Assembly: GCA_946409645.1 (NCBI GenBank)
Contig: CAMJXE010000005.1
Span: forward strand, 6,631-70,630
Origin: an uncultured Bacteroidales bacterium
Lineage (GTDB): Bacteria > Bacteroidota > Bacteroidia > Bacteroidales > WCHB1-69
Direction of reading: 5' to 3'
DNA length: 64,000 bases
Part shown: one piece after another, positions 3,950-60,650 of the stretch
How the letters are laid out: each line of letters begins with the position of its first letter
How positions within the stretch are numbered: position 1 is the stretch's first letter
Program-made: the position numbers and the translations under genes
The notes under the pieces: model-generated
Database searches by the model: none
The model's input: the letters and a program-made list of their open reading frames with translations, nothing else
Told to the model about the DNA's origin: nothing

Positions 3950-4020
3950 TCCCACACTGCGCTTTGCTTGCATGGGGTTATTTGCGCTTTGCGTGTCTTG
4001 CCTCTCCGAGGCGCTCAAGA
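3950..4020 (-). repeat. REP-B copy 1 (one hairpin plus tail)
   Basis: cccacactgcgctttgcttgcatgggg ... ttgcctctccgaggcgctcaaga. It ends 21 nt from the ATG at 3929. Confidence 0.75.
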
Positions 4021-4048
4021 AAATATTTTCAAAAATTAACTTTTCCTA

Positions 4049-5305
4049 TTAGTTATCATTGAGTTTAATAAAGCAGAACAGCATCATTGTAAACGCCCAA
4101 AGGGAGGAGCCGCCATAGCTGATAAAGGGTAGTGGGATGCCGATGATGGGAATCAGTCCGATGGTCATACCGATGTTAATGAAGAAGTGGACCGCGAAGA
4201 TGCCGGCAATGCCGTACCCGTAGTATCGGACAAACGGATTTCGCTGTTTTTCAGATAGTTTCAAGATGCGGAAAATAAGTGCCCCAAAAAGACCGAAAAC
4301 GACCATTGTCCCGACGAAGCCCCATTCTTCCCCGATGGCACAGAAGATGAAGTCGGTGCTCTGTTCAGGTACGAATTTCAGTTTCGTTTGCGTCCCTTTG
4401 AGGTATCCTTTTCCAAAGAAACCTCCAGATCCAATTGCGATTTTCGATTGATTGAGATTGAAATCGGCGCCTAACGGGTCGGAAGTTTTGCCCAAAATGG
4501 TGTCGATACGCTGTTTTTGGTGCGGTTCGAAGCCGTGTTCATAGAGAAAGTCGATGGAGAAAACGAAAAGGATACTGGCTACGTAGATGATGATATTGCG
4601 ACGGATTTTCTTTTTTTGAGTACGATTGTATATCATAAAGCCAATGAAAACAGCGGTAATCATGGCGATGGCGTAGGTTTCGTTAAAGGCCAGTGTGACA
4701 ATAGTGATAATGGCGGCGATGATGCATAATACAAGGAATTGGGTGCTCAAACCTTCGCGGTAGAAAAGGATGATGAAGGAGGCGAACACGAGTGCGGAGC
4801 CTGCATCGTGCTGGAGCATCACCACAATCACAGGAATGGCGATGAGTGCGAATTGCACAATCCAGACGTAACGGCGTTGGTTGGCCGTTTTGCCCTCCTG
4901 CATGAACTTCGCCATAGCCAAAGCAGTGGCTACTTTCATGAACTCGGTGGGTTGTAAGCTGAATCCACCGATCTTGATCCACGATTTCGCACCGTTGATT
5001 TCCGCACCGATAAACAGCACTAATACCATCAAAAAGAGGCAGAATAGATAGAAAAAGTAAGCATAGTGCTGTATTATTCCGCTGTCTATCAATAAGATAA
5101 TAGTCGCCAAGACGATTGATGTTCCAATCCAAAGCATCTGCTTGCTATAGGGTTGTCCGAAGTCAAAAATCGGGGTGGAACCGTCAGGAATGTAGCAGGT
5201 GGAGTAAATGGTGATCCAACCGATAAAAACCAATGCAAGATAATAACAAATCAACCTCACATCAAAGCCTTTGGACATCTTATTATATGGATCTAATTTC
5301 GGCAT
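4049..5305 (-). CDS. rodA: Rod shape-determining SEDS protein RodA (FtsW/RodA/SpoVE family)
   Basis: Polytopic membrane protein with GGFSLQPTEFMKV and PLPFISYGGSS regions. It lies 2 nt downstream of the PBP2 gene. Confidence 0.9.
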   Translation of the reverse strand: MPKLDPYNKMSKGFDVRLICYYLALVFIGWITIYSTCYIPDGSTPIFDFGQPYSKQMLWIGTSIVLATIILLIDSGIIQHYAYFFYLFCLFLMVLVLFIGAEINGAKSWIKIGGFSLQPTEFMKVATALAMAKFMQEGKTANQRRYVWIVQFALIAIPVIVVMLQHDAGSALVFASFIILFYREGLSTQFLVLCIIAAIITIVTLAFNETYAIAMITAVFIGFMIYNRTQKKKIRRNIIIYVASILFVFSIDFLYEHGFEPHQKQRIDTILGKTSDPLGADFNLNQSKIAIGSGGFFGKGYLKGTQTKLKFVPEQSTDFIFCAIGEEWGFVGTMVVFGLFGALIFRILKLSEKQRNPFVRYYGYGIAGIFAVHFFINIGMTIGLIPIIGIPLPFISYGGSSLWAFTMMLFCFIKLNDN

Positions 5306-5307
5306 AA

Positions 5308-7116
5308 CTATTTGATGTTGAGTTCTTTCATTCGTTGTTCGAGGTCGGTGCGCGCCACCTTTCTATTGATGTAGTATTCAGCCAGTAAGCTGGCGATAGG
5401 GCAGGCCACAGTAGCCCCGAAGCCACCGTTTTCCACCAGGCAGAAGATGACGATTTTTGGGTCGTTGGCCGGAGCGATGAGAGCGAATACTGAGTGGTCG
5501 CGACCATGTGGGTTCTGCGCGGTACCGGTCTTGCCAGCTACCTCAATACCAGGAATTTGCGCTCCACGACCGGTACCGCCGGTCACCACCATTTTCATGC
5601 CTTGGAGAACCGTTTCGAAATGACGCGGCTCAATCTTTGAATAGACCTTCTCATTGAATTGTGTGTTCAAACTGTCGCGATTGCCGATGGCTCGCACCAC
5701 ATGTGGACGGATGTAGTAGCCTTTGTTAGCGATAACAGCCAGCATATTGGCCATTTGCAACGGAGTGACCGCTGCTTCGCCTTGACCGATACCCATGGAA
5801 ACCACAGTGTTACCGTTCCAGCTGTTGTTGTATTTTTTGTCGAAATATTCCGCTGTCGGGATTCGTCCCTTCAACTCATAAGGCAGGTCGGTGTTGAATT
5901 GCTGTAGAAAACCCATGGAGCTCATGTAGTCCAGCCAAGCGGAGTATGATTCGTCAATGTTCTTGTATTTCTTTCGGTTAGAAAGAATATTGTAATAAGC
6001 ACGGCAGAAGAAGGTGTTGCAGGAACGTTGAATGGCGCTGTATATATTCAGTCCGCCGCAATTATGGCAGTGTACCACGTGATTGCCAAGGTGATAACCA
6101 CCGCCGGAGCAGGAGTATATGGTGGAGGAAGTGATGATATTGTCTTGTAATGCAATAAGTCCGTTGGCCAGTTTGAAGGTGGAACCGGGTGGGTAGGCAG
6201 CTTGTAATGCTCTGTTAAACAGTGGTTTTTCGGGATCCATCACTAATTTGCCGTAGTTTTTCGGGCGGGCGGTACCTACCAGCAGGTTCGGGTCGTAGTT
6301 GGGACTGGAGACCAGACAGAGAATCTCTCCTGTTTTTGGTTCTATCGCGACTATCGCGCCACGTTTTCCCGCCATCAGCTCTTCGCCGTAGCGTTGCAAT
6401 TGCATGTCGAGGGTGCTCCAAATGGAGACCCCTGGTACAGCCACTACATCGTCATCGCCGTTGTTAAACGGTCCGACCTCACGGTTGTGCACATCCACCA
6501 GCACCTTCTGTTTGCCCTTCACACCGCGCAAAATCGATTCGTAAGCCTTTTCGATACCGCTTTTACCGATATAATCGCCCATTCTGTAATAGCCATCGTT
6601 CTCCACATCTTGTTCATCCACCTCACTGACATAGCCAAGGATGTGGGCAGCAATTGGTTGCGGATAGGTACGAAGAGTACGCTCTTGTACGAAAAAGCCT
6701 GGAAATTCAGACATTTTCTCCTGCAAATAGCCATAATCCTCTTTAGAGATCTGTTGTTTGAAAAGGGAAGGAACACTACCGGAATATTTCGCGGCCTTCT
6801 CGATTTTTTTTCGCACCTCCTCCATTTCCATATCTAACACGCGGCATAGTTCCATGGTGTCGAAATCGCGTAACTCCTTGGGTACCACCATTAAATCGTA
6901 TGCGGCATCATTATACACCAACAGCGAGTCGTTGCGATCGTAAATGAATCCACGCGCAGGATGAATAGTCTTCTCACGGATAGCGTTTTCATTGGCTTTA
7001 CGTTGGTAGGACTTGTCCAGCACTTGTAAATCGAACAGCCGTATGGTGTAAACGATAATAAGAATACCCAATACGGTGAGGATGATATAATAGCGGTTGC
7101 TGTTGTCCTGTGCCAT
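5308..7116 (-). CDS. mrdA: Penicillin-binding protein 2 (transpeptidase)
   Basis: N-terminal TM helix, transpeptidase motifs STFK and KTGTAQ, and the conserved pairing with rodA. Confidence 0.9.
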   Translation of the reverse strand: MAQDNSNRYYIILTVLGILIIVYTIRLFDLQVLDKSYQRKANENAIREKTIHPARGFIYDRNDSLLVYNDAAYDLMVVPKELRDFDTMELCRVLDMEMEEVRKKIEKAAKYSGSVPSLFKQQISKEDYGYLQEKMSEFPGFFVQERTLRTYPQPIAAHILGYVSEVDEQDVENDGYYRMGDYIGKSGIEKAYESILRGVKGKQKVLVDVHNREVGPFNNGDDDVVAVPGVSIWSTLDMQLQRYGEELMAGKRGAIVAIEPKTGEILCLVSSPNYDPNLLVGTARPKNYGKLVMDPEKPLFNRALQAAYPPGSTFKLANGLIALQDNIITSSTIYSCSGGGYHLGNHVVHCHNCGGLNIYSAIQRSCNTFFCRAYYNILSNRKKYKNIDESYSAWLDYMSSMGFLQQFNTDLPYELKGRIPTAEYFDKKYNNSWNGNTVVSMGIGQGEAAVTPLQMANMLAVIANKGYYIRPHVVRAIGNRDSLNTQFNEKVYSKIEPRHFETVLQGMKMVVTGGTGRGAQIPGIEVAGKTGTAQNPHGRDHSVFALIAPANDPKIVIFCLVENGGFGATVACPIASLLAEYYINRKVARTDLEQRMKELNIK

Positions 7117-8076: not shown

Positions 8077-8101
8077 GACTTTACAGTTAATAAAAAACCT
8101 G

Positions 8102-8109
8102 CAAAAATA
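8102..8109 (-). promoter_or_regulatory. Bacteroidota -7 box TAnnTTTG (TATTTTTG) for the polyprenyl synthase-mrdA-rodA operon
   Basis: The plus strand reads caaaaata, 26 nt upstream of GTG 8076. Confidence 0.5.
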
Positions 8110-8146
8110 ACAATTCCTCACATATAGCGAGTAGAAAAAATGTCGA

Positions 8147-17480: not shown

Positions 17481-17650
17481 CTATACTGCGCTGCGCTTGT
17501 GTGTCTGGCTCCCCACACTGCGCTGCGCTTGTGTCAGGTTCCCCACACTGCGCTGCGCTTGTGTGGCTTCTTTAACCCCCACACTGCGCTGCGCTTGTGT
17601 GGGGTTAATTGCGCTTCGCGCGTGTTGCCTCTCCGAGGCTGCTCAAGGAA
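17481..17650 (-). repeat. REP-B copy 2 (hairpin module amplified 4 times, plus tail)
   Basis: actgcgctgcgcttgtgtg recurs at about 17485, 17517, 17547 and 17583, followed by ttaattgcgcttcgcgcgtgttgcctctccgaggctgctcaaggaa. It is 18 nt from the ispD ATG. Confidence 0.85.
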
Positions 17651-17683
17651 GTTTTTTAGTATGTTTGGGGTTGTTCGTTTCTG

Positions 17684-17704
17684 TTTGCTGTTGCCTGTTG
17701 CCTT
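17684..17704. repeat. Heptanucleotide array (3 units), overlapping the yitT-like stop codon
   Basis: tttgctg ttgcctg ttgcctt. Confidence 0.55.
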
Positions 17705-21949: not shown

Positions 21950-22012
21950 CCCCACATTGCGTTTCACTTGTATGGGGTTATTAAAAATTCATTTCTTCGA
22001 GACTGCTTAAGG
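21950..22012 (-). repeat. REP-B copy 3
   Basis: ccccacattgcgtttcacttgtatgggg ... cttcgagactgcttaagg; 18 nt from ATG 21932. Confidence 0.7.
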
Positions 22013-22051
22013 ATTGAAATTTAAGTTTATAAAATCAATAACCTATAACCA

Positions 22052-35812: not shown

Positions 35813-35886
35813 TGACCCCGGCGGGATTCAAACCCACGACTTTCAGAACCGGAATCTGACGTTCTATTCAGCTGAACTACGGGGCC
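35813..35886 (-). tRNA. tRNA-Arg (anticodon CCG)
   Basis: The reverse complement GGCCCCGTAGTTCAGCTGAATAGAACGTCAGATTCCGGTTCTGAAAGTCGTGGGTTTGAATCCCGCCGGGGTCA folds as a cloverleaf. The anticodon loop is TTCCGGT. CCA is not encoded. Confidence 0.9.
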
Positions 35887-35956: not shown

Positions 35957-36958
35957 TTAGATCACTATGGAGCAGACGATGAAGATGATGCTGGCGAATT
36001 GCAGGATATTGCGGGCGAGAAACCAGCGGATGGCAAACCATTCGAGGTGGTTTTCCGAAATCGCGTCCCAGTGCTCGATAGGACCATACCACCATTGCCG
36101 TTTGAATTCACGGTCGGGGTGGTAGCAGAACTGGCAGAGGAGATAAAACAGCGTGACGGAGAGTGGCAGCAACAGGAAGATGGCGGAAAAAGCCGGATGC
36201 AAATATTTGAAAATCAGCGAAATGAGAAGGATAATATAAGGTGTGAAATTGAAAATGGCAGAAGCGGTCAGTTGCAACGGTTTGGTTTTCAGGACCTCGG
36301 CCAACGTTTTTTTCCCCACTTTTTTGTCAGTGGAAATCTCCATGACGGAGTGCGTGTACAGGATGTTGACCACCCAGAGTCCCACAGCCACTGAAACGAC
36401 CCACACCCCCGTGTTGAGCGAACCGCATGCCGCATAATGCACACCGGCCATCAACAGCGGTCCGAAGATGAGACCTGTGACCAATTCCCCGAGACCGTGA
36501 TAACAGAAACGGATGGGTTTCCCGGAGTAGAAAAAGCCGAGGAACCCGGCTCCCAGAGCAATGTAGAGCGGTATGAAACCGCGTTTTGCGAAAACGATGC
36601 AGCCCAATAGCAGAGCGGTGAGTCCGAAGAGGGAAGCCACGAAAAAGAGTTTTTTCGGAGTGACTTCGCCGGAGGTGAGATAAGGGCTCTTGGCGATACG
36701 CGCACGCTCGCCTTCGGCAGCCACCTGCTCGCGAACCTCTTCGCTCTTGAACTGGTAGTCGAAATAATCGTCGAAAAGGTTGACAGACAAGTGGGCCAGC
36801 GCCACCCCGATGACGGCCACTATACCCAACCAAACGGAAAACGATTCATTGCCCGAGGCCATGAACACCGCGACCAACGCGGGCAACATGCTTTGCGGCA
36901 GCGCGAAGGCACGTGCGTTTTGGATCCAATAGAGAAGCTTTTTCATCATCTTGACCAT
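35957..36958 (-). CDS. UbiA-family prenyltransferase (MenA-like)
   Basis: Polytopic membrane protein with the Asp-rich motif NLFDDYFDYQ. The start is set at ATG 36958 (36949 or 36946 are also possible) because the longer ORF runs through tRNA-Glu. Confidence 0.7.
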   Translation of the reverse strand: MVKMMKKLLYWIQNARAFALPQSMLPALVAVFMASGNESFSVWLGIVAVIGVALAHLSVNLFDDYFDYQFKSEEVREQVAAEGERARIAKSPYLTSGEVTPKKLFFVASLFGLTALLLGCIVFAKRGFIPLYIALGAGFLGFFYSGKPIRFCYHGLGELVTGLIFGPLLMAGVHYAACGSLNTGVWVVSVAVGLWVVNILYTHSVMEISTDKKVGKKTLAEVLKTKPLQLTASAIFNFTPYIILLISLIFKYLHPAFSAIFLLLPLSVTLFYLLCQFCYHPDREFKRQWWYGPIEHWDAISENHLEWFAIRWFLARNILQFASIIFIVCSIVI

Positions 36959-36971
36959 TTCACATACACTA

Positions 36972-37008
36972 TAAAAAAAAACCACCCGTCCGTAAGAAAG
37001 GTGGCTTT
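36972..37008 (-). terminator. Intrinsic terminator downstream of tRNA-Glu
   Basis: The minus strand reads agccacc-tttcttacggacg-ggtggtt followed by a T-run of 7 or more. Confidence 0.5.
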
Positions 37009-37011
37009 TAG

Positions 37012-37083
37012 TACCGCGTACGAGAATCGAACTCGTATTGCAAGATTGAGAATCTTGATTCCTAACCGTTAGAAGAACGCGGC
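37012..37083 (-). tRNA. tRNA-Glu (anticodon CUC)
   Basis: The reverse complement GCCGCGTTCTTCTAACGGTTAGGAATCAAGATTCTCAATCTTGCAATACGAGTTCGATTCTCGTACGCGGTA folds as a cloverleaf. The anticodon loop is TTCTCAA and the T-loop is TTCGATT. Confidence 0.85.
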
Positions 37084-37098
37084 AGTTGAAATCGGCGG

Positions 37099-37106
37099 CA
37101 AAAATA
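37099..37106 (-). promoter_or_regulatory. -7 box TATTTTTG for tRNA-Glu
   Basis: The plus strand reads caaaaata, 16 nt upstream of the tRNA 5' end. Confidence 0.5.
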
Positions 37107-37176
37107 CATTTTTTTTTGATATAACGGCTTGTTTTCAAATTATTTTTTATCCAAAGCATAAGTTTAATAATCCCAT

Positions 37177-41674: not shown

Positions 41675-41682
41675 TATCTTTG
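41675..41682 (+). promoter_or_regulatory. Candidate -7 box TATCTTTG reading toward permease 1
   Basis: aaTATCTTTGcc, divergent from the cassette A promoter and upstream of the dyad sites. Confidence 0.3.
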
Positions 41683-41767: not shown

Positions 41768-41818
41768 GCGGCCCTTTTGTTAGATATTTATAGAATTGAC
41801 AACCAATGGTTTATGTTT

Positions 41819-41835
41819 TTGGCACGGAAAATGAT
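41819..41835 (+). promoter_or_regulatory. Candidate sigma-54 promoter for permease 1-ATPase-permease 2
   Basis: ttTGGCACGgaaaaTGAt. The -24 half is canonical and the -12 half is weak. The GG lies 62 nt from the proximal dyad centre, against 63 nt at the tolC locus. Confidence 0.35.
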
Positions 41836-41885
41836 GTATGAGAATGATGAAGAACGATGTATGGATGTTTATAAAAAAAATAAAT

Positions 41886-41957
41886 CCTTAAGCAGCCTCG
41901 GAGAGGCAAGACGCGCGAAGCGCTAATAACCCCATACAAGCGAAGCGCAGTGTGGGG
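41886..41957 (+). repeat. REP-B copy 4
   Basis: ccttaagcagcctcggagaggcaagacgcgcgaagcgctaataaccccatacaagcgaagcgcagtgtgggg; 17 nt from ATG 41974. Confidence 0.85.
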
Positions 41958-41973
41958 CTTAAAACAAAAAAAT

Positions 41974-44322
41974 ATGAAAAGTTACCTCAAATTCCTCAGT
42001 CGCAACAAACTCTACACCGCCGTCGAGGCGGTGGGCCTGGTCGTGAGCCTCGCCTTCGTCATCCTAATCGGCAGTTACGTGACGCAAAATCTGGCCGTCG
42101 TGTATCAGCAACCCGGCCATGACCGCATTTACGGCCTCGGCACCACCTCCAACTTGGGGCTTTCGGTGTGGGACAAAGCCTCCATCGAAGCACAGGTGCC
42201 CGGAATTGAGGCTATCGCTCGCTTTGGCTATGCCACCGACGAGATTTCTTACCACAAAAAAAACTATGAAGCGGAAGTTCGTCAGGTGGATGCGGAGTTC
42301 TTCGAGATCTTTCCCCAGTTTAGCCTTGTGGAGGGCACAGCCATCCCGTTCGACGGCACCCATAACGCCATTGTCAGCTGGAGTTTCGCGAACAGTCTGG
42401 AGAAAAAGGGCGACCTTATAGGACAACGTTTCATCATAGAAGGAGAGGAGGAGGAATACATCATTTGCGGCATTATGGATGGTCCGGAAAACACCTTGGT
42501 TGCCCACATTGATGTATTGATTCCGGTGAATGAGAAATGGTGGGCTGGGCGCGAACCTTTCCATAGCGTGGATGGCACGAAAACCTTTATCCGCAGGATG
42601 GAAAACACCAACGAAGAAGATTTCCTGGCCCAGATACTTGAAGTTAGCCGTCAGAACTATGGATCGTGGCTCAACAAAGAACTTAAAGTATTCGGTTTCA
42701 AGGAGATGTTCTTCCGCACTGAGAACGATTATGTATTACGCAGCGGCAACCTCAGCAGCATACGGATATTGTCGGCGGTGGTGTTCCTTCTCCTTCTGTC
42801 GGCGCTCGTCAACTACGTCAACCTCAACATGGCGTTGGTGGGGAAACGCGCCAAGGAGATGGCCACCCGCAGGCTTTTGGGTGCGCAGAAACTTTCCGTC
42901 ATGGGCAAGTTTATCGTCGAATCCGTCTTGTTCACGGCGGTGTGTTTTGTTTTCGCCCTTTTGATGGCTCACGCCCTTGTTCCCGTGATGAACTGGCTGT
43001 TGGCCAGTGCAACACCGGAAAGCGACATTCAATTGCAGTTGTTGATGAAACCGGCTTACATAGTCGCGTATCTGAGTGGCATCCTGCTGTTAGGGACGCT
43101 CTCGGGTTGGTTGCCGGCACTGTATGCATCGCACTACGAACCCATCGATGTGGTGCGGGGCACCTTCCGCTATCACAGTAAGATGTGGCTCAACAAAATC
43201 TTCATCGTCTTCCAGAACGTCTTGTCTGTTATACTGATAGCCATTGCCATCGTGATGGAAGTGCAAATGTGGCACATGATCAAGCGGCCCGTCCATGCGA
43301 ACACGAAAGACTTGTTCTACATCAGCGGGATCTGGTATCCTGTGCCTCATTTGGCTACTTTAGCCGATGAAATAGCGCAACTGCCTTGTGTCAAAGAGGT
43401 TGGCATAGGGCGAGGATTTCCCGGAAGCGCGGCTTATTCTGTCGGCATACGTTTGGACGAGGAAGATTTTATCTTGAAGTTGCTCATCGGTGACAGCGCT
43501 TATTTTCGCATGTTAGGTTTCGAAGTGGTGGAAGATTTCGGCCATCCACTCGCCAACTCGCTCTGGCTTGGTGAACACGCCTTTGCCAAAAGCGGAGCTT
43601 CTGACACATCGGTTACCATGCCGAAAAAACTTGCAATCATGATGAATCAGGATGCCGACTACATCGGCGGAATGCTTAAAGATTTCCCGGGGGAGAGCGC
43701 GGCCTCTCCGGATGGCTTAAGCAACCAGAACGTGGGTGTACTGGTACAGGAAACCCGGAAGTTGGCATGGGCAAGCGATCTATTTGTCAGAACCATCGGC
43801 GACCATTTGGAGGCCCGGAAGATTATCCTGAAACAGTGCCAGCAGTGGGCGGAAAAGGATGGGGAACCCTTTGCGGGACAGGACGATTGCGGTTATGTGG
43901 ACGACCTGAATCTTAAGTCGTTGGAGCCAGCCAAGCGCACCGTCCGACTGTTGGAGATTTTCATGGGCTTGTCGGTGCTGCTGTCGCTGCTCGGTCTCGT
44001 CGCCATGAGCACCTACTATTGCGATGAAGGAAGCCACAGTATTGCCGTCCGCAAAGTCTTCGGCAGCGATGTCAACCGCGAGTTGCTGCGCACGGTGAAG
44101 AGTTATATGATGCTCGTCGGAATCGCCGCCATCATCGGAGCTCCCATTGCGGTTTGGCTTAGCGGCAAATACTTGGAACGTTTCGCCTACCGAATCGAAC
44201 ATTACGGCTGGATCATTGTCGTGGCGGTTGTGGTCACCCTGTTGCTGGCCTTCCTCTCGGTGTTATGGCAGACGTTACGCGCCGCGAGGACGAACCCTGC
44301 GGAGGCGTTGAAGAAAGAATGA
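41974..44322 (+). CDS. MacB-like ABC efflux permease with two FtsX modules (permease 1)
   Basis: MKSYLKFLSRNKLYTAVEAVGLVVSLAFVILIG.. at the N-terminus, two FtsX TM bundles each preceded by a periplasmic domain, and the ending ..LRAARTNPAEALKKE. Confidence 0.85.
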   Translation: MKSYLKFLSRNKLYTAVEAVGLVVSLAFVILIGSYVTQNLAVVYQQPGHDRIYGLGTTSNLGLSVWDKASIEAQVPGIEAIARFGYATDEISYHKKNYEAEVRQVDAEFFEIFPQFSLVEGTAIPFDGTHNAIVSWSFANSLEKKGDLIGQRFIIEGEEEEYIICGIMDGPENTLVAHIDVLIPVNEKWWAGREPFHSVDGTKTFIRRMENTNEEDFLAQILEVSRQNYGSWLNKELKVFGFKEMFFRTENDYVLRSGNLSSIRILSAVVFLLLLSALVNYVNLNMALVGKRAKEMATRRLLGAQKLSVMGKFIVESVLFTAVCFVFALLMAHALVPVMNWLLASATPESDIQLQLLMKPAYIVAYLSGILLLGTLSGWLPALYASHYEPIDVVRGTFRYHSKMWLNKIFIVFQNVLSVILIAIAIVMEVQMWHMIKRPVHANTKDLFYISGIWYPVPHLATLADEIAQLPCVKEVGIGRGFPGSAAYSVGIRLDEEDFILKLLIGDSAYFRMLGFEVVEDFGHPLANSLWLGEHAFAKSGASDTSVTMPKKLAIMMNQDADYIGGMLKDFPGESAASPDGLSNQNVGVLVQETRKLAWASDLFVRTIGDHLEARKIILKQCQQWAEKDGEPFAGQDDCGYVDDLNLKSLEPAKRTVRLLEIFMGLSVLLSLLGLVAMSTYYCDEGSHSIAVRKVFGSDVNRELLRTVKSYMMLVGIAAIIGAPIAVWLSGKYLERFAYRIEHYGWIIVVAVVVTLLLAFLSVLWQTLRAARTNPAEALKKE

Positions 44323-44379
44323 ACGGCGAACAATTGTCGGCGAATTGAACGAATTATGCGAATTATATAAAGACATATT

Positions 44380-44446
44380 CCTTGAGCAGCCCCGGCAGGG
44401 GCAAGAGCTTGGTAGCCCCATACAAGGCGAAGCCGCAGTGTGGGGG
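44380..44446 (+). repeat. REP-B copy 5
   Basis: ccttgagcagccccggcaggggcaagagcttggtagccccatacaaggcgaagccgcagtgtggggg; 33 nt from ATG 44479. Confidence 0.75.
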
Positions 44447-44478
44447 ACATCAGAACGAACAATTTAATACCCATTATT

Positions 44479-45159
44479 ATGATACAAGTACAAAACCTCA
44501 CCAAAATCTTCCGCACGGAAGACATCGAGACCCTCGCGTTAGATGGGGTGTCATTCACCATCAACGATGGCGAGTTCGTTGCCGTCATGGGGCCGTCGGG
44601 CTGCGGCAAATCCACGCTGCTCAACATCCTCGGCCTCCTGGATAATCCCACCGAGGGCACCTATGAGCTGCTCGGACAGCAGGTCGGCAGCCTGAAGGAG
44701 AAGGAGCGCACCAAGTTCCGCAAGGGCAACATCGGCTTCGTGTTCCAGAGCTTCAACCTCATCGACGAGCTGAACGTCTATGAGAACATCGAGCTGCCGC
44801 TGCGCTACCTGAATATCAGCGCGACGGAGCGCAAGGAGCGGGTCACGGCGATGATGAAACGGATGGCCATCACCCACCGGGCCAAGCATTTCCCGCAGCA
44901 GCTCTCGGGCGGACAGCAGCAGCGCGTGGCCATCGCCCGCGCCGTGGTCGCGAACCCCAAGCTCATCCTCGCCGACGAGCCCACCGGCAACCTCGACTCC
45001 AAGAACGGCAAGGAGGTGATGGACCTGCTCACCGAGCTGCACAACGAGGGCACCACCATCGTGATGGTCACCCACTCGCAGCGCGACGCGGGCTACGCCG
45101 ACCGCATCATCAACCTCTTCGACGGCAGGATCGTGGAGGATGTGTTGCCGGAACTGTGA
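44479..45159 (+). CDS. ABC transporter ATP-binding protein (MacB type)
   Basis: Walker [10 protein letters not shown], signature LSGGQQQR, Walker B LILADE. Confidence 0.9.
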
Positions 45160-45183
45160 TGCCATAACATATTGAAGGGATTT

Positions 45184-45212
45184 TATAGAGACGCACCATG
45201 CGCGTCTCTACA
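45184..45212. repeat. REP-A copy 8 (variant loop)
   Basis: tatagagacgcaccatgcgcgtctctaca. Confidence 0.85.
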
Positions 45213-45249
45213 GACCCACCTTAAATTGCAGAAACCAAACATCAATTAT

Positions 45250-47592
45250 ATGTTTCGAAAAAGTAATCTCCTAATCCAGATACTCTCCCTCGGGGTGGGT
45301 CTTGCAATCGGCATCGTGCTGATTGCCAAAGTGTGCTTCGAGTTGTCGTACGACAGTTTCTATAAAGACGTGGACCGTATATATTGTATCCGTTCTGGTT
45401 ACGAACTACAGGGCGAATCCAGAGATTTCCCTCAGGTGAGTGGTGCGGTAGCATTTGGCTTCAAGGCAGAGGTGCCGGGAGTGGAAGAAGCCACTCGAAT
45501 GACTTTCTATTTCAATAGTGACCGTTATTTGGACGAGGATGGCAATGTCATCACCGGAAATCTCCGTTTAGCCGATTCATGCTTCTTCCGCGTTTTTGAC
45601 CGTCCCATTCTGGCTGGCAATCCGGAGAAAGTGCTGTCAGAGCCGCTATGTTTGATGGTGTCGGAGTCGTTTGCCCAAAAAATGGGTGGCGTGGAGGAAT
45701 GTATTGGCAAAATCATCTACAACGAGGATGTCCCTTTGTTGAAAATGACTATTGAGGGCGTATTCAAGGATTTCCCTAAAAATGGTTCTATAGACGCCGA
45801 CATTTTGCTGTCGATGGAGAGTTATTCAAAAAGCAGCACGGAGAACTGGGTCGGTAACGACCGCTATGTGGGATTTGTGAAATTGCAACAAGGTGTTGAT
45901 CCGCAATCGCTTAACGATGCCATCCGTAGGATGCAGGAGGCTCATCAGCCTTTGCAGGAGTTTGAGAAGAACGGCATGAAGCTGTGGTATTATCTTGCAC
46001 CATTTGGTAAAACCCACCTCAAAGAGTCTTCGGTGCATTCAATGGTAATACTGCTTTCCGTTATTGCAACAATGCTGATTGTCATCAGCTTACTCAACTA
46101 TATCCTGATCACAATTTCGTCTATGGTACATCGAGCCAAAGAAATTGGGGTACGAAAGTGCTATGGTGCGAACGCTTTCAGTATTTATGGATTATTGGCT
46201 CGGGAGTCGATAATACATCTATTATTGGCACTCGTTTTTGCAGCTGCCATTATTTTTGCCACAAAAGGATTGATACAGAACTTGTTGGGTGTGCCATTTG
46301 GGACATTACTTGTTCCCCAAAGCATTTGGACTATTGTGGCTGTGCTGTTGCTTGTGCTGTTCGTTTCCGTTTTCGTTCCTGCGCAGCTTTACATGCGCAT
46401 TCCCGTTTCGGTGGCCTTCCGCAATTATACGGAAAATTCGCGGCGATGGAAAATAGGACTGCTTGGCGTTCAGGTGTTTGTCAATGTATTTGTCATTTCG
46501 ATGCTGATGGTCATCGCTTCGCAATATCATAAAATGATGAACGACGACCCGGGCTACAATTATGAGAATGTGTTGTTTGTGGACATGTACGACGGAAATC
46601 AAGAGGCTCAACAACGTGTGGTGAATGCTCTTGGCCAACTTTCTGAAGTGACACACATTGCAGCAAGTTATGGTCTTCCTTACATTTGGTCGAATGGCGA
46701 CAACATATATCTTCCCGGTGATGATCGTGAATTGTTCAACGTGGCCGACCAATACGAGGCCACAGAGCAATTCTATGCTCTTTTCGGGATGGAGTTTGTT
46801 GACGGTCGCGCACCGGCCGATTCCAATGAAGTGGTGGTGAGCGAGAGTTTCGTGAAACGAATGAATGACTTCACGGACTGGAGCGATGGAGCGGTGGGGA
46901 AACAGATTATGATTACCGGACACGAAAACTCTTTGACAAATCTTAAATCATTCACGATCACAGGTGTTTACCGCGACTATCGTCTGGGTAGCCTCTTGGA
47001 TATGGATACCCGACCGAGCGTGCGTTTCTACGGCAGTTTGGAGGACGGAGAGTCTTATATGCCGCATCTGGTTTTCAAAGTGAATAAAATGGATGAAACC
47101 ACGATGGGGAAGCTGAAGGAAACCATTTCTAAGGCCCTTGATGGAAAAGATGTACAGTTGAAAGTATATGCGGACGAAATGCATTCAGCATACGAAGATA
47201 GTCGCAAGATGCGCAACACCGTTTTCATCGGTTCCATTTTTGCATTGATGATTGCCATGTTGGGCCTCATCGGTTTCATACGCGATGAGTCGAGTCGTCG
47301 GAGCAAAGAAATGGCCATCCGCAAAATTAACGGTGCTACAGAGAGAGATGTACTAAGTATTTTTGCTTGGGGTGTGTTGAAGTTATCTCTTATTATGTCG
47401 ATTTTTGCGTGTGTTTTCGCCTATTTCGTTGCCGACAAATGGCTTGAACAGTTCGCCGAGCGCATCGGCCTCTCGCCGTTGTATTTCATTTTTGGCGCAA
47501 CTGTGGTTCTTCTCATCGTAGCAGTCGTAGTCGTTATGAGTAGTGTCAGAATTGCGAAGACTAACCCTGCTGAGGCGTTGAAGAAGGAGTAG
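45250..47592 (+). CDS. MacB-like ABC efflux permease with two FtsX modules (permease 2)
   Basis: MFRKSNLLIQILSLGVGLAIGIVLIAKV.. at the N-terminus, ending ..AKTNPAEALKKE. The ORF-track start at 45172 (TTG) reads through REP-A. Confidence 0.85.
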   Translation: MFRKSNLLIQILSLGVGLAIGIVLIAKVCFELSYDSFYKDVDRIYCIRSGYELQGESRDFPQVSGAVAFGFKAEVPGVEEATRMTFYFNSDRYLDEDGNVITGNLRLADSCFFRVFDRPILAGNPEKVLSEPLCLMVSESFAQKMGGVEECIGKIIYNEDVPLLKMTIEGVFKDFPKNGSIDADILLSMESYSKSSTENWVGNDRYVGFVKLQQGVDPQSLNDAIRRMQEAHQPLQEFEKNGMKLWYYLAPFGKTHLKESSVHSMVILLSVIATMLIVISLLNYILITISSMVHRAKEIGVRKCYGANAFSIYGLLARESIIHLLLALVFAAAIIFATKGLIQNLLGVPFGTLLVPQSIWTIVAVLLLVLFVSVFVPAQLYMRIPVSVAFRNYTENSRRWKIGLLGVQVFVNVFVISMLMVIASQYHKMMNDDPGYNYENVLFVDMYDGNQEAQQRVVNALGQLSEVTHIAASYGLPYIWSNGDNIYLPGDDRELFNVADQYEATEQFYALFGMEFVDGRAPADSNEVVVSESFVKRMNDFTDWSDGAVGKQIMITGHENSLTNLKSFTITGVYRDYRLGSLLDMDTRPSVRFYGSLEDGESYMPHLVFKVNKMDETTMGKLKETISKALDGKDVQLKVYADEMHSAYEDSRKMRNTVFIGSIFALMIAMLGLIGFIRDESSRRSKEMAIRKINGATERDVLSIFAWGVLKLSLIMSIFACVFAYFVADKWLEQFAERIGLSPLYFIFGATVVLLIVAVVVVMSSVRIAKTNPAEALKKE

Positions 47593-47605
47593 TTACTTGA
47601 AAAGG

Positions 47606-47929
47606 TCAATTGATATGTGCAAAATGGTCCAAATAACGGTTGAGCGCGGCAAGGGTGTCCAAATCCCCATCAAGGAAAGCCCCGCAGTAAAGTTCCCTGA
47701 ATCGGCAGAGCTCTTTCAGGAGGGCTTTGCGGTTGGGTTGCCCAAGCCTGCCGTATGCGATGGTCAGGTCGATGAGCTCCTGCATCCGCTCAAAAGCCTT
47801 TTCGGCGTTGTCGCAACGGCCTTTAGCGAGCCATTTCGTGGCACGATAAGTTTCGCTCCCAATATTGGCCATCTGTTTTGCAAAGGGCATCTCGGCCCAT
47901 GCTCCGTTACTGAGTGTCACGTGCTGCAT
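47606..47929 (-). CDS. Hypothetical 107-aa protein, predicted helical, unrecognised
   Basis: Intact ORF. Its ATG overlaps the stop of the upstream remnant frame (TAATG). Confidence 0.45.
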   Translation of the reverse strand: MQHVTLSNGAWAEMPFAKQMANIGSETYRATKWLAKGRCDNAEKAFERMQELIDLTIAYGRLGQPNRKALLKELCRFRELYCGAFLDGDLDTLAALNRYLDHFAHIN

Positions 47930-48098
47930 TATTCAACGAATTTTGAAACGATGGATTTTATTTGTTCCCTGACTTCCGGATTCTCAACATCACGGCTGCG
48001 GTTGCCTTATCGGCCACACACTTAATCATATCAATGAAAGTATTGGATGCCAATTCTTTAAGTTGTTCTCTTGATATTTTTTCAGTAAGTACCTGCAT
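47929..48098 (-). pseudogene. Internally deleted, frame-shifted small gene (resembles my recollection of the DUF5674 family)
   Basis: ATG 48098 opens MQVLTEKISREQLKELASNTFIDMIKCVADKATAAV.. and stops after 46 codons. A second frame reads GNRSRDVENPEVREQIKSIVSKFVE-stop, ending at 47929. Confidence 0.35.
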
Positions 48099-48136
48099 AA
48101 ATCATTTTTTCGGCAAAAATAATAAAATATCAACTT

Positions 48137-48240
48137 CCTTAGAGCAGCCCCGGAGGGGCAAAACGCGCGCAGCGCAATTAACCCCACACAAGCGCAGCGC
48201 AGTGTGGGGCCCATCCCCAAGCGTCGCAGCGCAGTGTGGA
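48137..48240 (+). repeat. REP-B copy 6 (tail plus two hairpin modules)
   Basis: ccttagagcagccccggaggggcaaaacgcgcgcagcgcaattaaccccacacaagcgcagcgcagtgtggggcccatccccaagcgtcgcagcgcagtgtgga; 18 nt from ATG 48258. Confidence 0.85.
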
Positions 48241-48257
48241 ACCTAAAACCAAATGAT

Positions 48258-50648
48258 ATGAAAAGCTACCTCAAATTCCTCAGCAGAAACAAACTCTACA
48301 CCGCCGTTGAGGCGGTGGGACTAGTGGTGAGCCTCGCGTTCGTCATCCTGATTGGCAATTATGTGTATCAACAGTATTCCGTGGCCTACGGCAATCCTTA
48401 TCGAGATAGGATTTATGCCGTAGGATGCCAGGATTATATGTCGCTGTCGTGGTGGGACAAGGCCGTCTTTGAGGACAAGCTTCCCGAAGCCGAGGCAGTG
48501 TGCCGCATCAGCAATGCCGACGGGGACGGTAACATCACTGTTGGCGACGAACAGCCTGTCAGTGCCGTAGTCGCCGAGGCCGACCCGGAGCTTTTTGAAC
48601 TCTTTCCAAGTCTCATTTTGATTGACGGAAATCTCGACGAGTTCCGTCTCAAAGGGCATTGTCTCGTGTCTGAGTCACTTGCTAAAGGAGCTTTCCATGG
48701 GGATGCTATCGGTAAACCGGTCAAGGTCACTTATTTCGATGAAAAAAAAGAAGCCGTGGTTTGTGGCGTGTTTAAGGATGCCGCCAACTCGATGGTGCCT
48801 CACACCGATGTGCTTTTCAACCCCGAGTTCAACGAATGGTATGTATCGGGGGAAAAGGAGCCATTCACTTCCATTGGTTCGTATGTGACCTTGATAAAAG
48901 TCCACGAAGTCACCGACCGTGAGCAGCTTGCGAAGAAAGTTGAAGCCGTGGGGTTGCCCAATTATTCCGATGGTTTCGTGAGTGCCATGCCGATTTACAC
49001 GCTTCCGGAAGTCTTTTTCTCTGAAAACCAGTGGATGTTCAAGAAAGGCAACAAACAGGTGCTGCAAATGCTGACCGTGGTGGTGGTGCTGCTCTTGCTC
49101 TCGGCCATTTTCAACTATGTCAACCTCAACATGGCCCTTTCGGGGAAACGCGCCAAGGAGATGGCCACGAGGCGGCTTCATGGGGCCACGAAAGGACTAA
49201 TCGTAATAAAGTATATCCTTGAGTCCGTGGCGTTTACGGCAATATCTTTTGTTTTGGCATTCTTGGTGGCTTACGCTTTCCTCCCGATGATGAACAGTTT
49301 GCTGCATAGTGTTTCGGGCGGCGAATTTGGCATCGATGCACCGTTTGAGCAGTTTGTTCCTGTTCGATTTGAGTGGTCTGTGGGCATTGTGGCAGCTTAT
49401 CTTGTGGCGGTTGTGCTGTTGGGCACTTTGGCGGGCATCGCGCCTGCCGCCATTGCTTCGCGTTGCGATCCGATTGATGTGGTGCGTGGCACCTATCGGC
49501 TTCAAACAAAAAGGGTGTTCAGCAAGGTGTTCATTGTGTTCCAAAACACCATCACCATCGTCCTGATTGCCATGGCAATCCTGATGGAAGTGCAAATGCG
49601 CCACATGATGAACCGTCCCACTAACATGCGCTCGGAGGGCTTGTATTCGTTGCAATGCTGGGTGGCGGACTATTCCGATATAGCACCGCTCATCGACCGT
49701 TTGGAGAAGATCCCGAACGTGAAAGCAGTGAGCTACGGTCGTGGTTTTGCCGGGCAGATGAACATGGGCACCACTGTGATCACGCCCGAAGGCGAAAAGG
49801 TGAACTTGCAACTCATTCTATGCGATGAAACGTATTTCGATATGCTTGGTTTGCAGATTGTAGAGGATTTCGGCGTGCCAAAAACCAATTCAGTCTGGAT
49901 GTCGAAGACTTTGGCTGAAAAACTCGCTTTGAACGACTCAACGATGCATTATTACCCCCGACACATGCGCATCAATGGCTCCCGACCCGAGACCGTGGGC
50001 GGCATCTATGAAGACTTCCCGACACGGTCGGCAGCGGCCTCCGAACCCAACCAGTTTTCGGCAGTCATCATCGCCAAGGCGGAAGATCTGATTTGGGGCA
50101 ATGGCGTAATGGTGGATGTTTCTGGTGATTACAAAGAGACCGAAAAAGCCATTCTGCAAGCCTATGCCGACTATTCCGAGGAAAAGAACGGCACCTACGT
50201 GGAACCGGCGCAAAACGGCTATGTGCAAAACCTTAACAACTTGTTGCTTCGACCTGTAAAAATGGCCATGCGCCTGCTCGAACTGTTCATGCTGCTATCC
50301 GTCTTGATTTCGCTGCTCGGTCTCGTCGCCATGAGCACCTACTACAGCGGCGAGAACACCAAGAGCATCGCCGTGCGGAAAACCTTCGGCAGCGATGTGC
50401 GGCGCGAGCTGTGGCGCACCGTCAGAAGCTACATGCTGCTCGTGGGAATCGCGGCAATGATCGGTGTGCCTGTCGCTGTCTGGCTAAGCGGGAAGTACTT
50501 GGAACGTTTCGCCTACCGCATCGAGCATTACGGCTGGGTCTTCGCCGTGGCCGTCCTACTCACCGCGCTGATGGCCTTCCTCTCGGTGCTTTGGCAGACC
50601 CTCCGCGCCGCGCGGACGAACCCGGCGGAGGCGTTGAAGAAGGAATAG
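48258..50648 (+). CDS. MacB-like ABC efflux permease with two FtsX modules (permease 3)
   Basis: The N-terminal 33 aa are identical to permease 1. The TM bundles and C-terminal ~110 aa are closely similar, the periplasmic domains are divergent, and it ends ..WQTLRAARTNPAEALKKE. Confidence 0.85.
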   Translation: MKSYLKFLSRNKLYTAVEAVGLVVSLAFVILIGNYVYQQYSVAYGNPYRDRIYAVGCQDYMSLSWWDKAVFEDKLPEAEAVCRISNADGDGNITVGDEQPVSAVVAEADPELFELFPSLILIDGNLDEFRLKGHCLVSESLAKGAFHGDAIGKPVKVTYFDEKKEAVVCGVFKDAANSMVPHTDVLFNPEFNEWYVSGEKEPFTSIGSYVTLIKVHEVTDREQLAKKVEAVGLPNYSDGFVSAMPIYTLPEVFFSENQWMFKKGNKQVLQMLTVVVVLLLLSAIFNYVNLNMALSGKRAKEMATRRLHGATKGLIVIKYILESVAFTAISFVLAFLVAYAFLPMMNSLLHSVSGGEFGIDAPFEQFVPVRFEWSVGIVAAYLVAVVLLGTLAGIAPAAIASRCDPIDVVRGTYRLQTKRVFSKVFIVFQNTITIVLIAMAILMEVQMRHMMNRPTNMRSEGLYSLQCWVADYSDIAPLIDRLEKIPNVKAVSYGRGFAGQMNMGTTVITPEGEKVNLQLILCDETYFDMLGLQIVEDFGVPKTNSVWMSKTLAEKLALNDSTMHYYPRHMRINGSRPETVGGIYEDFPTRSAAASEPNQFSAVIIAKAEDLIWGNGVMVDVSGDYKETEKAILQAYADYSEEKNGTYVEPAQNGYVQNLNNLLLRPVKMAMRLLELFMLLSVLISLLGLVAMSTYYSGENTKSIAVRKTFGSDVRRELWRTVRSYMLLVGIAAMIGVPVAVWLSGKYLERFAYRIEHYGWVFAVAVLLTALMAFLSVLWQTLRAARTNPAEALKKE

Positions 50649-55609: not shown

Positions 55610-55626
55610 GAATGCCACAACAACTC

Positions 55627-55815: not shown

Positions 55816-55959
55816 GCGAAGATTGGTTATGCTATAGTATTGAAATACAATCAATTTCGCAATAATAGAGATGAATTATTCATTCAGAAAAATGGGCTTA
55901 AAGCCAAATATTCGTTCAGAAAAACGGTTTAGATGGTTGTTTTTTCGTTGGAAAAAGTG

Positions 55960-55967
55960 TATTTTTG
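55960..55967 (+). promoter_or_regulatory. -7 box TATTTTTG for cassette D
   Basis: Within ggaaaaagtgTATTTTTGcgg, the same word as in the cassette A leader; 22 nt upstream of ATG 55989. Confidence 0.55.
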
Positions 55968-55988
55968 CGGCGTTAATTCGTTTGAAAA

Positions 55989-57422: not shown

Positions 57423-57443
57423 TTTGTTTAAAGAATAAAGATT

Positions 57444-58787: not shown

Positions 58788-59641
58788 GCACGTGGACATG
58801 GATAGGGATTCTGGCGGGCAGTTGCTTCATCGTGGCTTTGTTGACGACCTTGTGGGTTTCCAAGCGGAATCGCGACAAGGTGGCCTATATGATGGATGCT
58901 TTGGAGGACGGAGAGACCAATTTCCGTTTCCGTGACAACACCGCCATGAACCGCGAACTCAACCGCATCCGAACCATCATGGACCGGCAAAGTGCTCAGA
59001 ATGAGGATGTCTCGTGGAGTAAGCTCTTTCGGGTCATTACGCATGAGATGATGAACACGGTAACTCCGATTGCGGCCTTGAGCGACGCGCTTGTCAAGGA
59101 CGACACGTTGGATGTGAAGGCTGGTTTGGAGACCATTTCGACCTCTTCCCGCGAACTGATTCGTTTTGTGGAATCCTACCGCTCGTTCACCAAGGCCGCG
59201 CCTCCCGTGTGCAAAACCTTGTTGGTCAGTGAATTGTTGGATAGGGTAGTGCGCTTGAACGAAGTGAAGGCGGCGGCGAACAATGCCACGGTAACCTACA
59301 CGGTCAATCCCCCTGATTTGCTGCTCTACGCTGATGAGTCGCAGCTGATGCAGGTTTTCAACAATTTGATTAAAAACGCTTTGGAGGCCAATGCCACGGA
59401 AATCAGCATCGAAGCTGGATTGGGTAGCGAAGACCGCACGGTGATTCAGGTGCGCAACAACGGTCAGCCAGTACCGCTTCGTCAGCACGAGGAGATTTTC
59501 GTGCCCTTCTATTCCACCAAAACAAGTGGCAGCGGCATCGGGTTGAGCCTCTCGCGCCGCATCATGCAGCGTCACAACGGGTCGTTGGTGCTGCGCCAGA
59601 GCGACCGTCATCAGACGGTTTTCGCGCTGATTTTCCCGTGA
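58784..59641 (+). CDS. Sensor histidine kinase (single TM, HisKA plus HATPase_c)
   Basis: H-box ITHEMMNTVTPI, N-box NLIKNALEA, and G-boxes. The start overlaps the regulator stop (ATGA). Confidence 0.85.
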   Translation: MSTWTWIGILAGSCFIVALLTTLWVSKRNRDKVAYMMDALEDGETNFRFRDNTAMNRELNRIRTIMDRQSAQNEDVSWSKLFRVITHEMMNTVTPIAALSDALVKDDTLDVKAGLETISTSSRELIRFVESYRSFTKAAPPVCKTLLVSELLDRVVRLNEVKAAANNATVTYTVNPPDLLLYADESQLMQVFNNLIKNALEANATEISIEAGLGSEDRTVIQVRNNGQPVPLRQHEEIFVPFYSTKTSGSGIGLSLSRRIMQRHNGSLVLRQSDRHQTVFALIFP

Positions 59642-59656
59642 GAACAGGCAATTAAT

Positions 59657-60499
59657 TTACTTCACCATCCCTTGCAACAATCGGATTTCCCCCGCCCACA
59701 ACGTTTCGACCGGGGTTTCGAGAATGAGCGGCATGTCGTCAAAGCGCGGGTCGTTCATGAAACGCTCGAAAAATTCTATGCCGAGGAGGCCTTTTCCGAT
59801 GCTGTCGTGGCGATCGACGCGGCTGGCGAACTCTTTTTTGGTGTCGTTGAGGTGCACTGCCCGCAGGTAGTGCGCGCCCACGGTGTCGTCGAATTCCTGC
59901 CAGGTTTTGCTGTATCCGTTTTCGGTCTTCAGATCGTAACCCGCGGAATAGGTGTGGCACGTGTCAATGCAGATGCCCACGCGGCTTTTGTCTTCCACTT
60001 TGTCAATGATATACGCCAAATGTTGGAAGCTGAATCCCACGTTGGAGCCTTGTCCGGCGGTGTTTTCGATTACAGCCGTCACGCCCTGTGTTTTGTCCAA
60101 AGCGAAGTTGATGCTTTCGGCCACGCGAGTGAGACATTCCTCCAAGGTTATCTGTTTCAGATGGCTGCCTGGGTGGAAATTAAGCATTTTTAACCCTAAT
60201 TGTTCACAGCGTTGCATCTCTTCGAGGAAGGAGTTGCGTGACTTTTCCAATCCTTCCGGATCTGGACTACCGAGGTTGATGAGGTAGCTGTCGTGGGGGA
60301 GTACATAATCGGCGGAAACACCTGATTTGGCAAGGTTTTCCTTGAAGGCGACGATGGATTTCTCGCTCAAGGGTGCCGAAAACCACTGCCGCTGGTTTTT
60401 GGTGAATAGGGCGAATGCGGTCGCACCCACCTGCATCGCATTCAACGGGGCGTTCTCCACCCCGCCGCTGGCGCTGACATGTGGTCCGATGTATTTCAT
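59657..60499 (-). CDS. nfo: Endonuclease IV (deoxyribonuclease IV)
   Basis: [13 protein letters not shown]..; 280 aa TIM-barrel AP endonuclease with conserved His/Asp/Glu metal ligands ([26 protein letters not shown]). Confidence 0.9.
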
Positions 60500-60520
60500 A
60501 ATGCTTTTTTTTCGTTTTGA

Positions 60521-60650
60521 TTCCAGGGGTTGCGCTTTGCTTATCCCTCTATTCCAGGGGTTGCGCTTCGCTTACCCCTTTATTCCAGGGGCTTCGCTTC
60601 GCTTGCCCCTGGCTACCGAGCTTTTGCCCCTACGGGGCTGCTTAAGGAAG
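60521..60650 (-). repeat. REP-B copy 7 (divergent hairpin module 3 times, plus tail)
   Basis: ttccagggg(t/c)t(g)cgctt(t/c)gctt.cccct three times, then gcttttgcccctacggggctgcttaaggaag; 22 nt from the nfo ATG at 60499. Confidence 0.75.

Follow-up and report, generated by a model that had tools for sequence, protein, structure and literature searches.

Small repeats are usually seen as passengers of bacterial genomes that settle at sites of least harm, that is, at the 3' ends of genes and in convergent gaps. Classical repetitive extragenic palindromic (REP) sequences lie near the 3' end of the upstream gene, at a variable distance from the downstream open reading frame (ORF; PMC3733652), and the BOX, RUP and SPRITE repeats are over-represented between convergent genes (PMC3049150, Table 1). 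REP-B, the repeat described here, does the opposite. Seven copies lie in a stretch of 64,000 nucleotides (the window; contig CAMJXE010000005.1, here C5, positions 6631-70630, a window position being the C5 coordinate minus 6630) from the genome of an uncultured Bacteroidales bacterium, and among the genomes sampled REP-B is found only in one genus of uncultured rumen Bacteroidales. It has colonised promoter-less junctions between co-directional genes, where some 90% of the copies run head-to-module with the mRNA. REP-B is probably (we put the probability at about 0.68) a polar, modular, non-autonomous mobile repeat, similar to REPs and their mosaic assemblies, that is co-transcribed in operons.

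The closest described systems are the REPs, the bacterial interspersed mosaic elements (BIMEs) and their REP-associated tyrosine transposases (RAYTs, or TnpAREP; Nunvar 2010, PMC2817692; Di Nocera 2013, PMC3733652; Quentin 2018, PMC6006769). Like these, REP-B consists of imperfect palindromes, short and GC-rich, of which there are about 100 copies outside genes, and the whole is a mosaic of several conserved motifs that is amplified locally; in one of its two types a possible GTAG tag stands directly 5' of the palindrome. It is also lineage-specific, vertically persistent and mostly found between unidirectional genes, and the genome holds one single-copy Y1 (HUH) gene, a possible counterpart of the RAYTs, flanked by hairpins related to REP-B. 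The differences are equally plain. REP-B modules are direct and do not alternate as in BIMEs, and the unit as a whole, unlike a REP, is asymmetric, with about 90% of copies in the sense of transcription. REPs are usually enriched in convergent gaps, from which REP-B is depleted, and published uni-REPs stay close to the upstream 3' end, whereas REP-B lies nearer to the downstream start than to the upstream stop. As to the Y1 gene, it is of the IS200-like subclass 1.2 rather than a TnpAREP, and copy number does not follow it.

Other small repeats share different parts of this pattern. The pneumococcal BOX element, A-B(n)-C, is modular like REP-B, and its internal modules likewise vary in number (Croucher 2011, PMC3049150), and BOX, RUP and SPRITE are transcribed with neighbouring genes but enriched between convergent genes, where REP-B is under-represented (PMC3049150). 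Non-autonomous (PATE-like) derivatives of IS200/IS605 resemble REP-B in having asymmetric ends with different hairpins, neither inverted terminal repeats nor target duplication, and an IS200-like Y1 gene in the same genome; however, REP-B lacks the lagging-strand orientation bias of IS200/IS605 elements, filled/empty comparisons gave no conserved target word, and no full-length parent insertion sequence with REP-B ends was seen. In function, a polar intercistronic repeat is best compared with the enterobacterial repetitive intergenic consensus (ERIC) or IRU of enterobacteria and yersiniae, which, as far as the work of De Gregorio (2005) is related in PMC2229807, comprises small structured repeats that are co-transcribed in operons and have an orientation-dependent effect on mRNA. 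For REP-B an effect on mRNA would follow by analogy only. [quoted passage not shown] Judged by its sequence, REP-B shares with the REPs a 20-40-nt imperfect palindrome in high copy number outside genes, and differs from the MITEs in having no terminal inverted repeats and no target-site duplication; no inverted termini were common to the copies, some multi-module copies alone having weak complementarity between head and linker. Searches of the published literature found no description of REP-B.

Architecture and polarity of REP-B

In the seven window copies, read in the sense of the downstream gene, the unit consists of an A/T-rich stretch with a conserved AAA, a head, a spacer, one to four modules, an A-rich leader and the ATG. 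The head reads TTCCTTRAGCAG or (T)TCCTTRAGCAG and continues into a 5-bp GC hairpin with a loop of 3-4 nt and then CAAGA. Beyond this point there are two types. In type I the spacer after CAAGA is ACGCGCGAAGCGCAATTAA, a GCGC-GAA-GCGC mini-hairpin of the GCGAAGC type, AATTAA stands directly 5' of the module, and the module is CCCCACAC-AAGCGMAGCGCA-GTGTGGGG, with its arms 12 nt apart; in type II the spacer is GCTCGGTAG, GGTAG takes the place of AATTAA, and the module is CCAGGGG-TAAGCGAAGCGCAA-CCCCTGG, with its arms 14 nt apart. Modules are 28-nt palindromes, the tips of which form a further stem of 3-4 bp, and both modules and tandem heads repeat in direct orientation only, never in alternation.

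A hidden Markov model (HMM) of the head detected 103 copies at E<0.01 across the genome under study (labelled G000; 3.09 Mb in 147 contigs, labelled C, at 48% G+C), and an Infernal model of REP-B detected 102. By our own gene calls (2364 genes, 88% coding), on which all intergenic and orientation counts rest, 96 of the 103 heads are intergenic. Between co-directional genes 77 of these 96 are sense and eight antisense (binomial p=2.8e-15), the others lying between convergent (seven) or divergent (four) genes. The antisense copies are mostly head-only or degenerate and tend to score lower (median 31 vs 38 bits, p=0.05). In congeners, which as kin are not independent samples and share some orthologous junctions, loci drawn from mixed species comprise 24 sense, one antisense, five divergent and one convergent copy, and two copy-rich species, G016 and G017, have 27, three, two and one, respectively. 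The orientation bias that a sequence-only reading of the window had proposed is therefore borne out both genome-wide (77:8) and genus-wide (24:1 and 27:3), and the census is not random.

This orientation follows transcription, not replication. Strand changes with the genes, four of the window copies being on the minus and three on the plus strand within 64 kb, and 12 of 36 neighbouring pairs on one contig lie on opposite strands. Measured against the leading strand inferred from GC skew, a rough proxy on the contigs of metagenome-assembled genomes (MAGs), the split is 35:26, or 26:23 for sense copies alone, and only 53% of genes follow the skew. It is conceivable in principle that lagging-strand insertion as in IS608 and ISDra2, together with co-orientation of genes and replication, sets the polarity, and IS200/IS605, the nearest enzyme family, does show such behaviour (PMC6006769); the figures above already contradict this explanation, which we regard as extremely improbable.

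The window copies and their neighbours are as follows.

3951..4021 (-): copy 1, type I, slightly degenerate head, one module, 21-nt leader (3930-3950); ATG 3929 of a RapZ-C/APH-like gene, upstream gene rodA/ftsW-like
17481..17650 (-): copy 2, type I head, GCGAAGC spacer hairpin, four modules, the last degenerate, 17-nt leader; ATG 17463 of ispD, upstream gene for a YitT-family membrane protein
17651-17700: heptamer repeats and a CCCCAAA box beside copy 2
21950..22014 (-): copy 3, decayed head hairpin, one module CCCCATAC...GTGGGG, 17-nt leader; ATG 21932 of an HlyD-type adaptor, upstream gene for a TolC-like OEP
41884..41957 (+): copy 4, type I, one module with a T.G wobble, 16-nt leader; divergent gap, ATG 41974 of an FtsX-type permease
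44378..44446 (+): copy 5, type II head ending GGTAG, one module, leader of about 32 nt; ATG 44479 of an ABC ATPase, upstream gene for the permease of the same transporter
48134..48239 (+): copy 6, type I, one extra head base, two modules, 18-nt leader; ATG 48258 of a second FtsX-type permease, preceded by a weak, doubtful minus-strand ORF
60523..60650 (-): copy 7, type II head ending GGTAG, three CCAGGGG...CCCCTGG modules, 23-nt leader; ATG 60499 of nfo, upstream gene for an AIR-synthase-related kinase

These seven are the only matches of the head model in the window. The order of parts and the orientation with the downstream gene, as given in the sequence-only reading, held in all seven; the distances from last module to ATG, measured again as 21, 17, 17, 16, 32, 18 and 23 nt, agree with the earlier values to within 1 nt, and the described amplification of modules in place was found again, with four, three and two modules at 17481-17650, 60523-60650 and 48134-48239. 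It was likewise correct that five of the seven copies lie between co-directional genes, copy 4 being in a divergent gap and copy 6 after the doubtful ORF. The only sense -7 box before copy 4, TATCTTTG (41675-41682), stands about 200 nt upstream of its head, so that this copy would fall in a 5' untranslated region, and the junction orthologous to that of copy 6 in another species (L020; L denotes the loci compared, and G with other numbers the further species) is occupied too. The close relatives of the window nfo gene are without exception from MAGs of uncultured Bacteroidales of the rumen and gut. Two minor features of the window may be recorded here. Opposite the CCCCAAACATA motif that lies upstream of copy 2, the other strand has a perfect TATGTTTG box (17660-17667, +). 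It points into the antisense of the YitT gene and is likely a chance match; in most copies the final G of the box is absent. A long minus-strand ORF call (35957-37159) is doubtful because two tRNA genes, on the minus strand at 35813-35886 and 37012-37083, overlap it.

Promoter-less junctions, probably within operons

The choice of gap is as distinctive as the orientation. REP-B occupies 84 of 1693 co-directional gaps, five of 262 convergent gaps and four of 262 divergent gaps (Fisher p=7e-4), and per available sense slot it is depleted from both convergent (odds ratio 3.5, p=3e-4) and divergent gaps (odds ratio 6.2, p=7e-6). A second palindromic family of G000, REP-A (GTAGAGACG..CGTCTCTAC; 67 copies, 12 of them inside genes), serves as an internal control: it is present in 5.7% of convergent vs 2.2% of co-directional gaps (p=0.003) and lies nearer to the upstream stop than to the downstream start (34 vs 53 nt). 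REP-A behaves as a classical repeat, and the gap preference of REP-B is the reverse of the classical pattern. The presence of both in one genome provides a natural system in which to ask whether RNA-level selection or the mechanism of insertion lies behind orientation.

The -7 promoter box of Bacteroidetes is TAnnTTTG. In G000 this box is found in the sense direction in 80% of the leaders in divergent gaps, at a median of 43 nt before the ATG, and can thus be used as a proxy for promoters. It occurs in 55% of co-directional gaps of 100-300 nt that lack REP-B and in only five of 71 (7%) that carry it (Fisher p=2e-15); in gaps of 40-120 nt, which are closer to the 'native' length, the rate is 32%. 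Leaders downstream of REP-B are T-poor and A-rich. With gaps nearly devoid of the box, the copies are taken to be operon-internal, and the downstream genes would be reached by read-through across REP-B. Gene order points the same way: copy 3, between the genes for a TolC-like protein and an HlyD-type adaptor, would lie within an efflux operon, copy 5 is between the genes for a permease and its ABC ATPase, and the sole copy of species G003 is between cysD and cysN. The earlier suggestion that the copies lie inside probable polycistronic transcripts is therefore supported by the scarcity of promoter boxes.

The same data bear on the idea that REP-B marks a transcriptional boundary, as a terminator of the upstream gene, a promoter of the downstream gene, or both. 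Its GC-rich hairpins do follow a stop codon, and the AT-rich stretch before the head is loosely promoter-like. However, 93% of REP-B gaps lack the TAnnTTTG box, no stem is followed by a T-run on either strand, no terminator-like site was called at the copies, and the copies stand in obvious operons such as the three just named, all of which makes a boundary function highly unlikely. No TAnnTTTG box was found within or after REP-B, and the candidate role as promoter was rejected; the reverse strand of the AT-rich stretch reads TAnnTTT, with the final G in only one of 42 copies. A further candidate explanation of polarity, in which antisense copies act as intrinsic terminators, was also set aside, because a simple scan calls none at REP-B on either strand.

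Turnover and possible means of spread

REP-B is present in 21 of the 24 species of the genus that were sampled, at 1-139 copies, and absent from the other three; a model search detected none in 16 genomes from other families of the order. Orthologous junctions in different species may be empty, of type I, of type II or with a different number of modules. The nfo junction, for example, has three modules in G000, one in a sister species (L032) and none at L033. Given this wide range of copy number, the gain and loss at junctions and the REP-like parts, REP-B looks, from comparison of genomes, like a dispensable mobile repeat, and the range of copy number argues against an essential role.

The link to a REP/RAYT system is suggestive only. 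G000 has a single Y1 gene (PF01797, 70.5 bits), which scores above the cut-off of the IS200 model and below that of the RAYT model and has the signature Y---Q--HH, characteristic of subclass 1.2 (PMC6006769). Here and in congeners the gene is preceded or flanked by head-core hairpins followed by GCTCGGTAG, in both orientations, and these repeats match only positions 14-33 of the model. At L001 (G000 C2:43402-46707) the Y1 gene adjoins a comM/Mg-chelatase-like gene that has been duplicated in part, with one and the same C-terminal peptide encoded at two places (1013-1235 vs 2425-3282); congeners retain an open Y1 frame of 161-178 amino acids.

Several observations weigh against a simple mobile repeat of this kind. 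The repeats that flank the Y1 gene are without the TTCCTTGAGCA part of the head, and across congeners there is no clean relation between the Y1 gene and the number of REP-B copies: the three richest genomes (116-139 copies) have Y1 genes that are only about 30% identical, there is a single copy in a genome whose Y1 gene is intact and 93% identical, and the gene of G000 itself is frameshifted. Comparison of filled with empty junctions gave neither a target-site duplication nor a clean insertion boundary; whole gaps turn over, including heptamer microsatellites and other hairpin modules. About 17 of the roughly 26 junctions that are occupied in another species are also occupied here, where random, independent insertion at about 5% of gaps would give far fewer, and this co-occupancy fits selective retention as well as it fits inheritance or hot spots. 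A pure model of tolerance where harmless does not explain the depletion from convergent gaps, which together with the co-occupancy argues against purely passive tolerance. Finally, co-transcription in operons is something that we infer from promoter absence and gene order only.

Mini-hairpins of the d(GCGAAGC) type are suited to recognition in single-stranded DNA. They fit a mechanistic proposal for the polarity, in which an HUH/Y1-type single-strand enzyme would insert the active strand of REP-B into the non-template strand exposed by transcription. Such a mechanism is compatible with a non-autonomous REP/BIME-like repeat, for which it would supply the cause of polarity, and in one step it would explain the sense orientation, the depletion upstream of promoters (divergent gaps) and past the ends of operons (convergent gaps) and the preference for junctions that are read through; a Y1 gene with head-core repeats is present as well. 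Nevertheless, the junctions had neither a target word in common nor a clean boundary, copy number does not follow the Y1 gene, and no experimental precedent was found in the literature; we consider the proposal improbable.

The gaps of this genus are made up of ordered pieces, of which REP-B is one, as at window positions 17651-17700 and 60651-60700, at G000 C24:11319-11617 and at many other loci, and REP-B explains much of what makes the intergenic DNA of these rumen MAGs odd and hyper-variable. Heptamer microsatellites stand after the stop codon, namely (TTAGCAG)n, (TAGGCAA)n, (GAATGCT)n and (AATTAAG)n. Most of the heptamers carry a stop codon, and three or more repeats thus put stops in all three frames. 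Arrays of the (CGATGAT)n type, up to about 300 nt long, can stand between REP-B and the next start. A third hairpin module, TCCCC..GGGG-TGCCCGAAGGGCGGGGTAG, is placed exactly between the CCCCAAT box and the AT-rich stretch before the REP-B head (G000 C104, C72:5178, C146:2375 and C83:1637; L016, L019 and L028) and resembles a further repeat with a GTAG tag that has been inserted in nested fashion. In two species with one or two copies (G005 and G013), a copy lies between DNA-methyltransferase-like and DUF262/HNH-like genes (L022 and L023), and this restriction-modification-like pair may have carried REP-B between species.

Fold, spacing and the transcript

All three kinds of stem in REP-B covary. 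In the head hairpin 98.7% of cells are paired and two positions are fully compensated (C-G to U-A), far above slid controls; the spacer varies as GCGC/GCAC...GCGC/GTGC, and the module tips as GCG/CGC, GGC/GCC and GGCC/GGCC. Compensatory changes, which the sequence-only reading had named as a check, are accordingly present in head, spacer and module tips. Counted over 99 type I modules, there are 36 G.T to 11 A.C pairs (p=3.5e-4), although 16 of the 36 fall at one position inherited by a subfamily, without which the split is 20:11. This asymmetry was discarded as proof of RNA folding, the counts not being independent and a mutational bias (C-to-T on the non-template strand) being an alternative. 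Relative to shuffled sequences, the fold z-scores are -3.2, -3.4 and -1.5 for the sense RNA and -1.7, -0.9 and -0.2 for the antisense, and the predicted sense fold leaves the leader and ATG unpaired. These predictions fit a strand-specific fold, either of RNA or of top-strand DNA. Rfam 15 returned only two tRNAs at gathering score, and nothing at E<=1 over 41800-48300.

The strict distance to the start codon claimed for the window, 17-33 nt, turned out to be a typical range and not a rule. Across the genome (n=58) the distance from last module to ATG has a floor of about 14 nt, with 27 of 58 at 14-28 nt and a tail of 24 of 58 at 32-86 nt. The spacing depends on how the module is defined, the median being 17 nt by minimum free energy folds, 39 nt by strict stems and 26 nt (interquartile range 21-38) by HMM modules, and we therefore report a floor and a mode and no fixed distance. 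The tails after the last module are commonly A/C-rich in composition and show no conserved motif, which ruled out the leader as a part of REP-B, and in one filled/empty pair (L118 vs C132) the last 14 nt or so of the leader are native. The idea that REP-B lands on ATGAAA starts was likewise rejected: L028 vs C69 is suggestive, but L118 vs C132 keeps those native nucleotides and L022 vs C6 is without ATGAAA.

It is against this background that a stronger claim has to be weighed, namely that REP-B is a dedicated intercistronic RNA element under positive selection, for which mobility is only the means of spread. The two small 5' hairpins would cap the upstream cistron, the single-stranded AAUUAA/GGUAG linker would be an endonuclease site, and the large module hairpin or hairpins would protect the new 5' end and insulate a leader that lacks a Shine-Dalgarno (SD) sequence, giving neighbouring cistrons independent stability or translation. 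Much is consistent with this: the fixed 5'-to-3' order and sense polarity, the confinement to junctions without a promoter and the depletion from those gaps, the convergent ones, in which passive repeats usually accumulate, the minimum of about 14 nt between the last module and the ATG with an unpaired leader, the covariation of all three stems with the excess of G.T over A.C in the modules, the high co-occupancy of orthologous junctions, and the precedent of an orientation-dependent mRNA effect in ERIC, as far as PMC2229807 relates it. On the other hand, otherwise similar congener genomes have 0-10 copies, the same junction is empty, type I or type II depending on the species, the distances to the ATG extend into a long tail, the G.T excess owes 16 of its 36 pairs to one inherited position and could be enlarged by C-to-T bias, and Rfam gave no match. 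We regard such an element as possible but unlikely, and a dedicated processing, stabilising or insulating role for REP-B as something that we infer rather than observe.

Translation initiation in Bacteroidota depends on unstructured A-rich leaders. For the reading that we prefer, a polar mobile repeat of the REP/BIME type, the course of events might be the following. Read-through transcription would carry REP-B into polycistronic mRNAs, where it would form a row of stable hairpins that stops some 14 nt or more short of the following start codon and leaves the A-rich, SD-less leader unpaired. A constraint at the level of the transcript would keep the polarity, with sense copies suited to read-through and downstream initiation and full antisense copies not tolerated; alternatively, insertion might be coupled to the transcribed strand. 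The candidates for the cause of polarity are thus three: purging of antisense copies, use at the RNA level and transcription-coupled single-strand insertion. Any benefit to the host, such as the shielding of flanking cistrons from exonucleases by the hairpins, would at most be accessory, because congeners live without REP-B. Spread would probably proceed through single-stranded DNA (HUH/Y1) or through recombination between copies, neither of which is established.

A bolder combination of these ideas, tentative and in our view improbable, is that REP-B acts as mobile operon punctuation, a selfish single-stranded DNA element that is able to persist, or to insert, only in the transcribed sense strand of promoter-less junctions and whose RNA would be a processing or stabiliser cassette that uncouples cistrons in bacteria without SD-led initiation. 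If this were true, a spreading repeat would be shaping the ratios of expression within operons of these Bacteroidales, and REP-B may in any event reveal whether the ratios of cistrons in Bacteroidota are tuned by structured repeats.

There is also an effect on the reading of start codons. A few genes appear to start at a GTG inside the 3' arm of a module or at an ATG that abuts one, and REP-B may thus supply or crowd start codons. Since such starts occur inside or against modules, REP-B will mislead start-codon calling. Several of the ORFs concerned are lipoprotein-like (signal peptide plus Cys) and appear to start at the GTG of the 3' arm GTGTGGGG or at the abutting ATG; those in G000 are at C146:996, C23:1799, C14:26571 and C14:27131.

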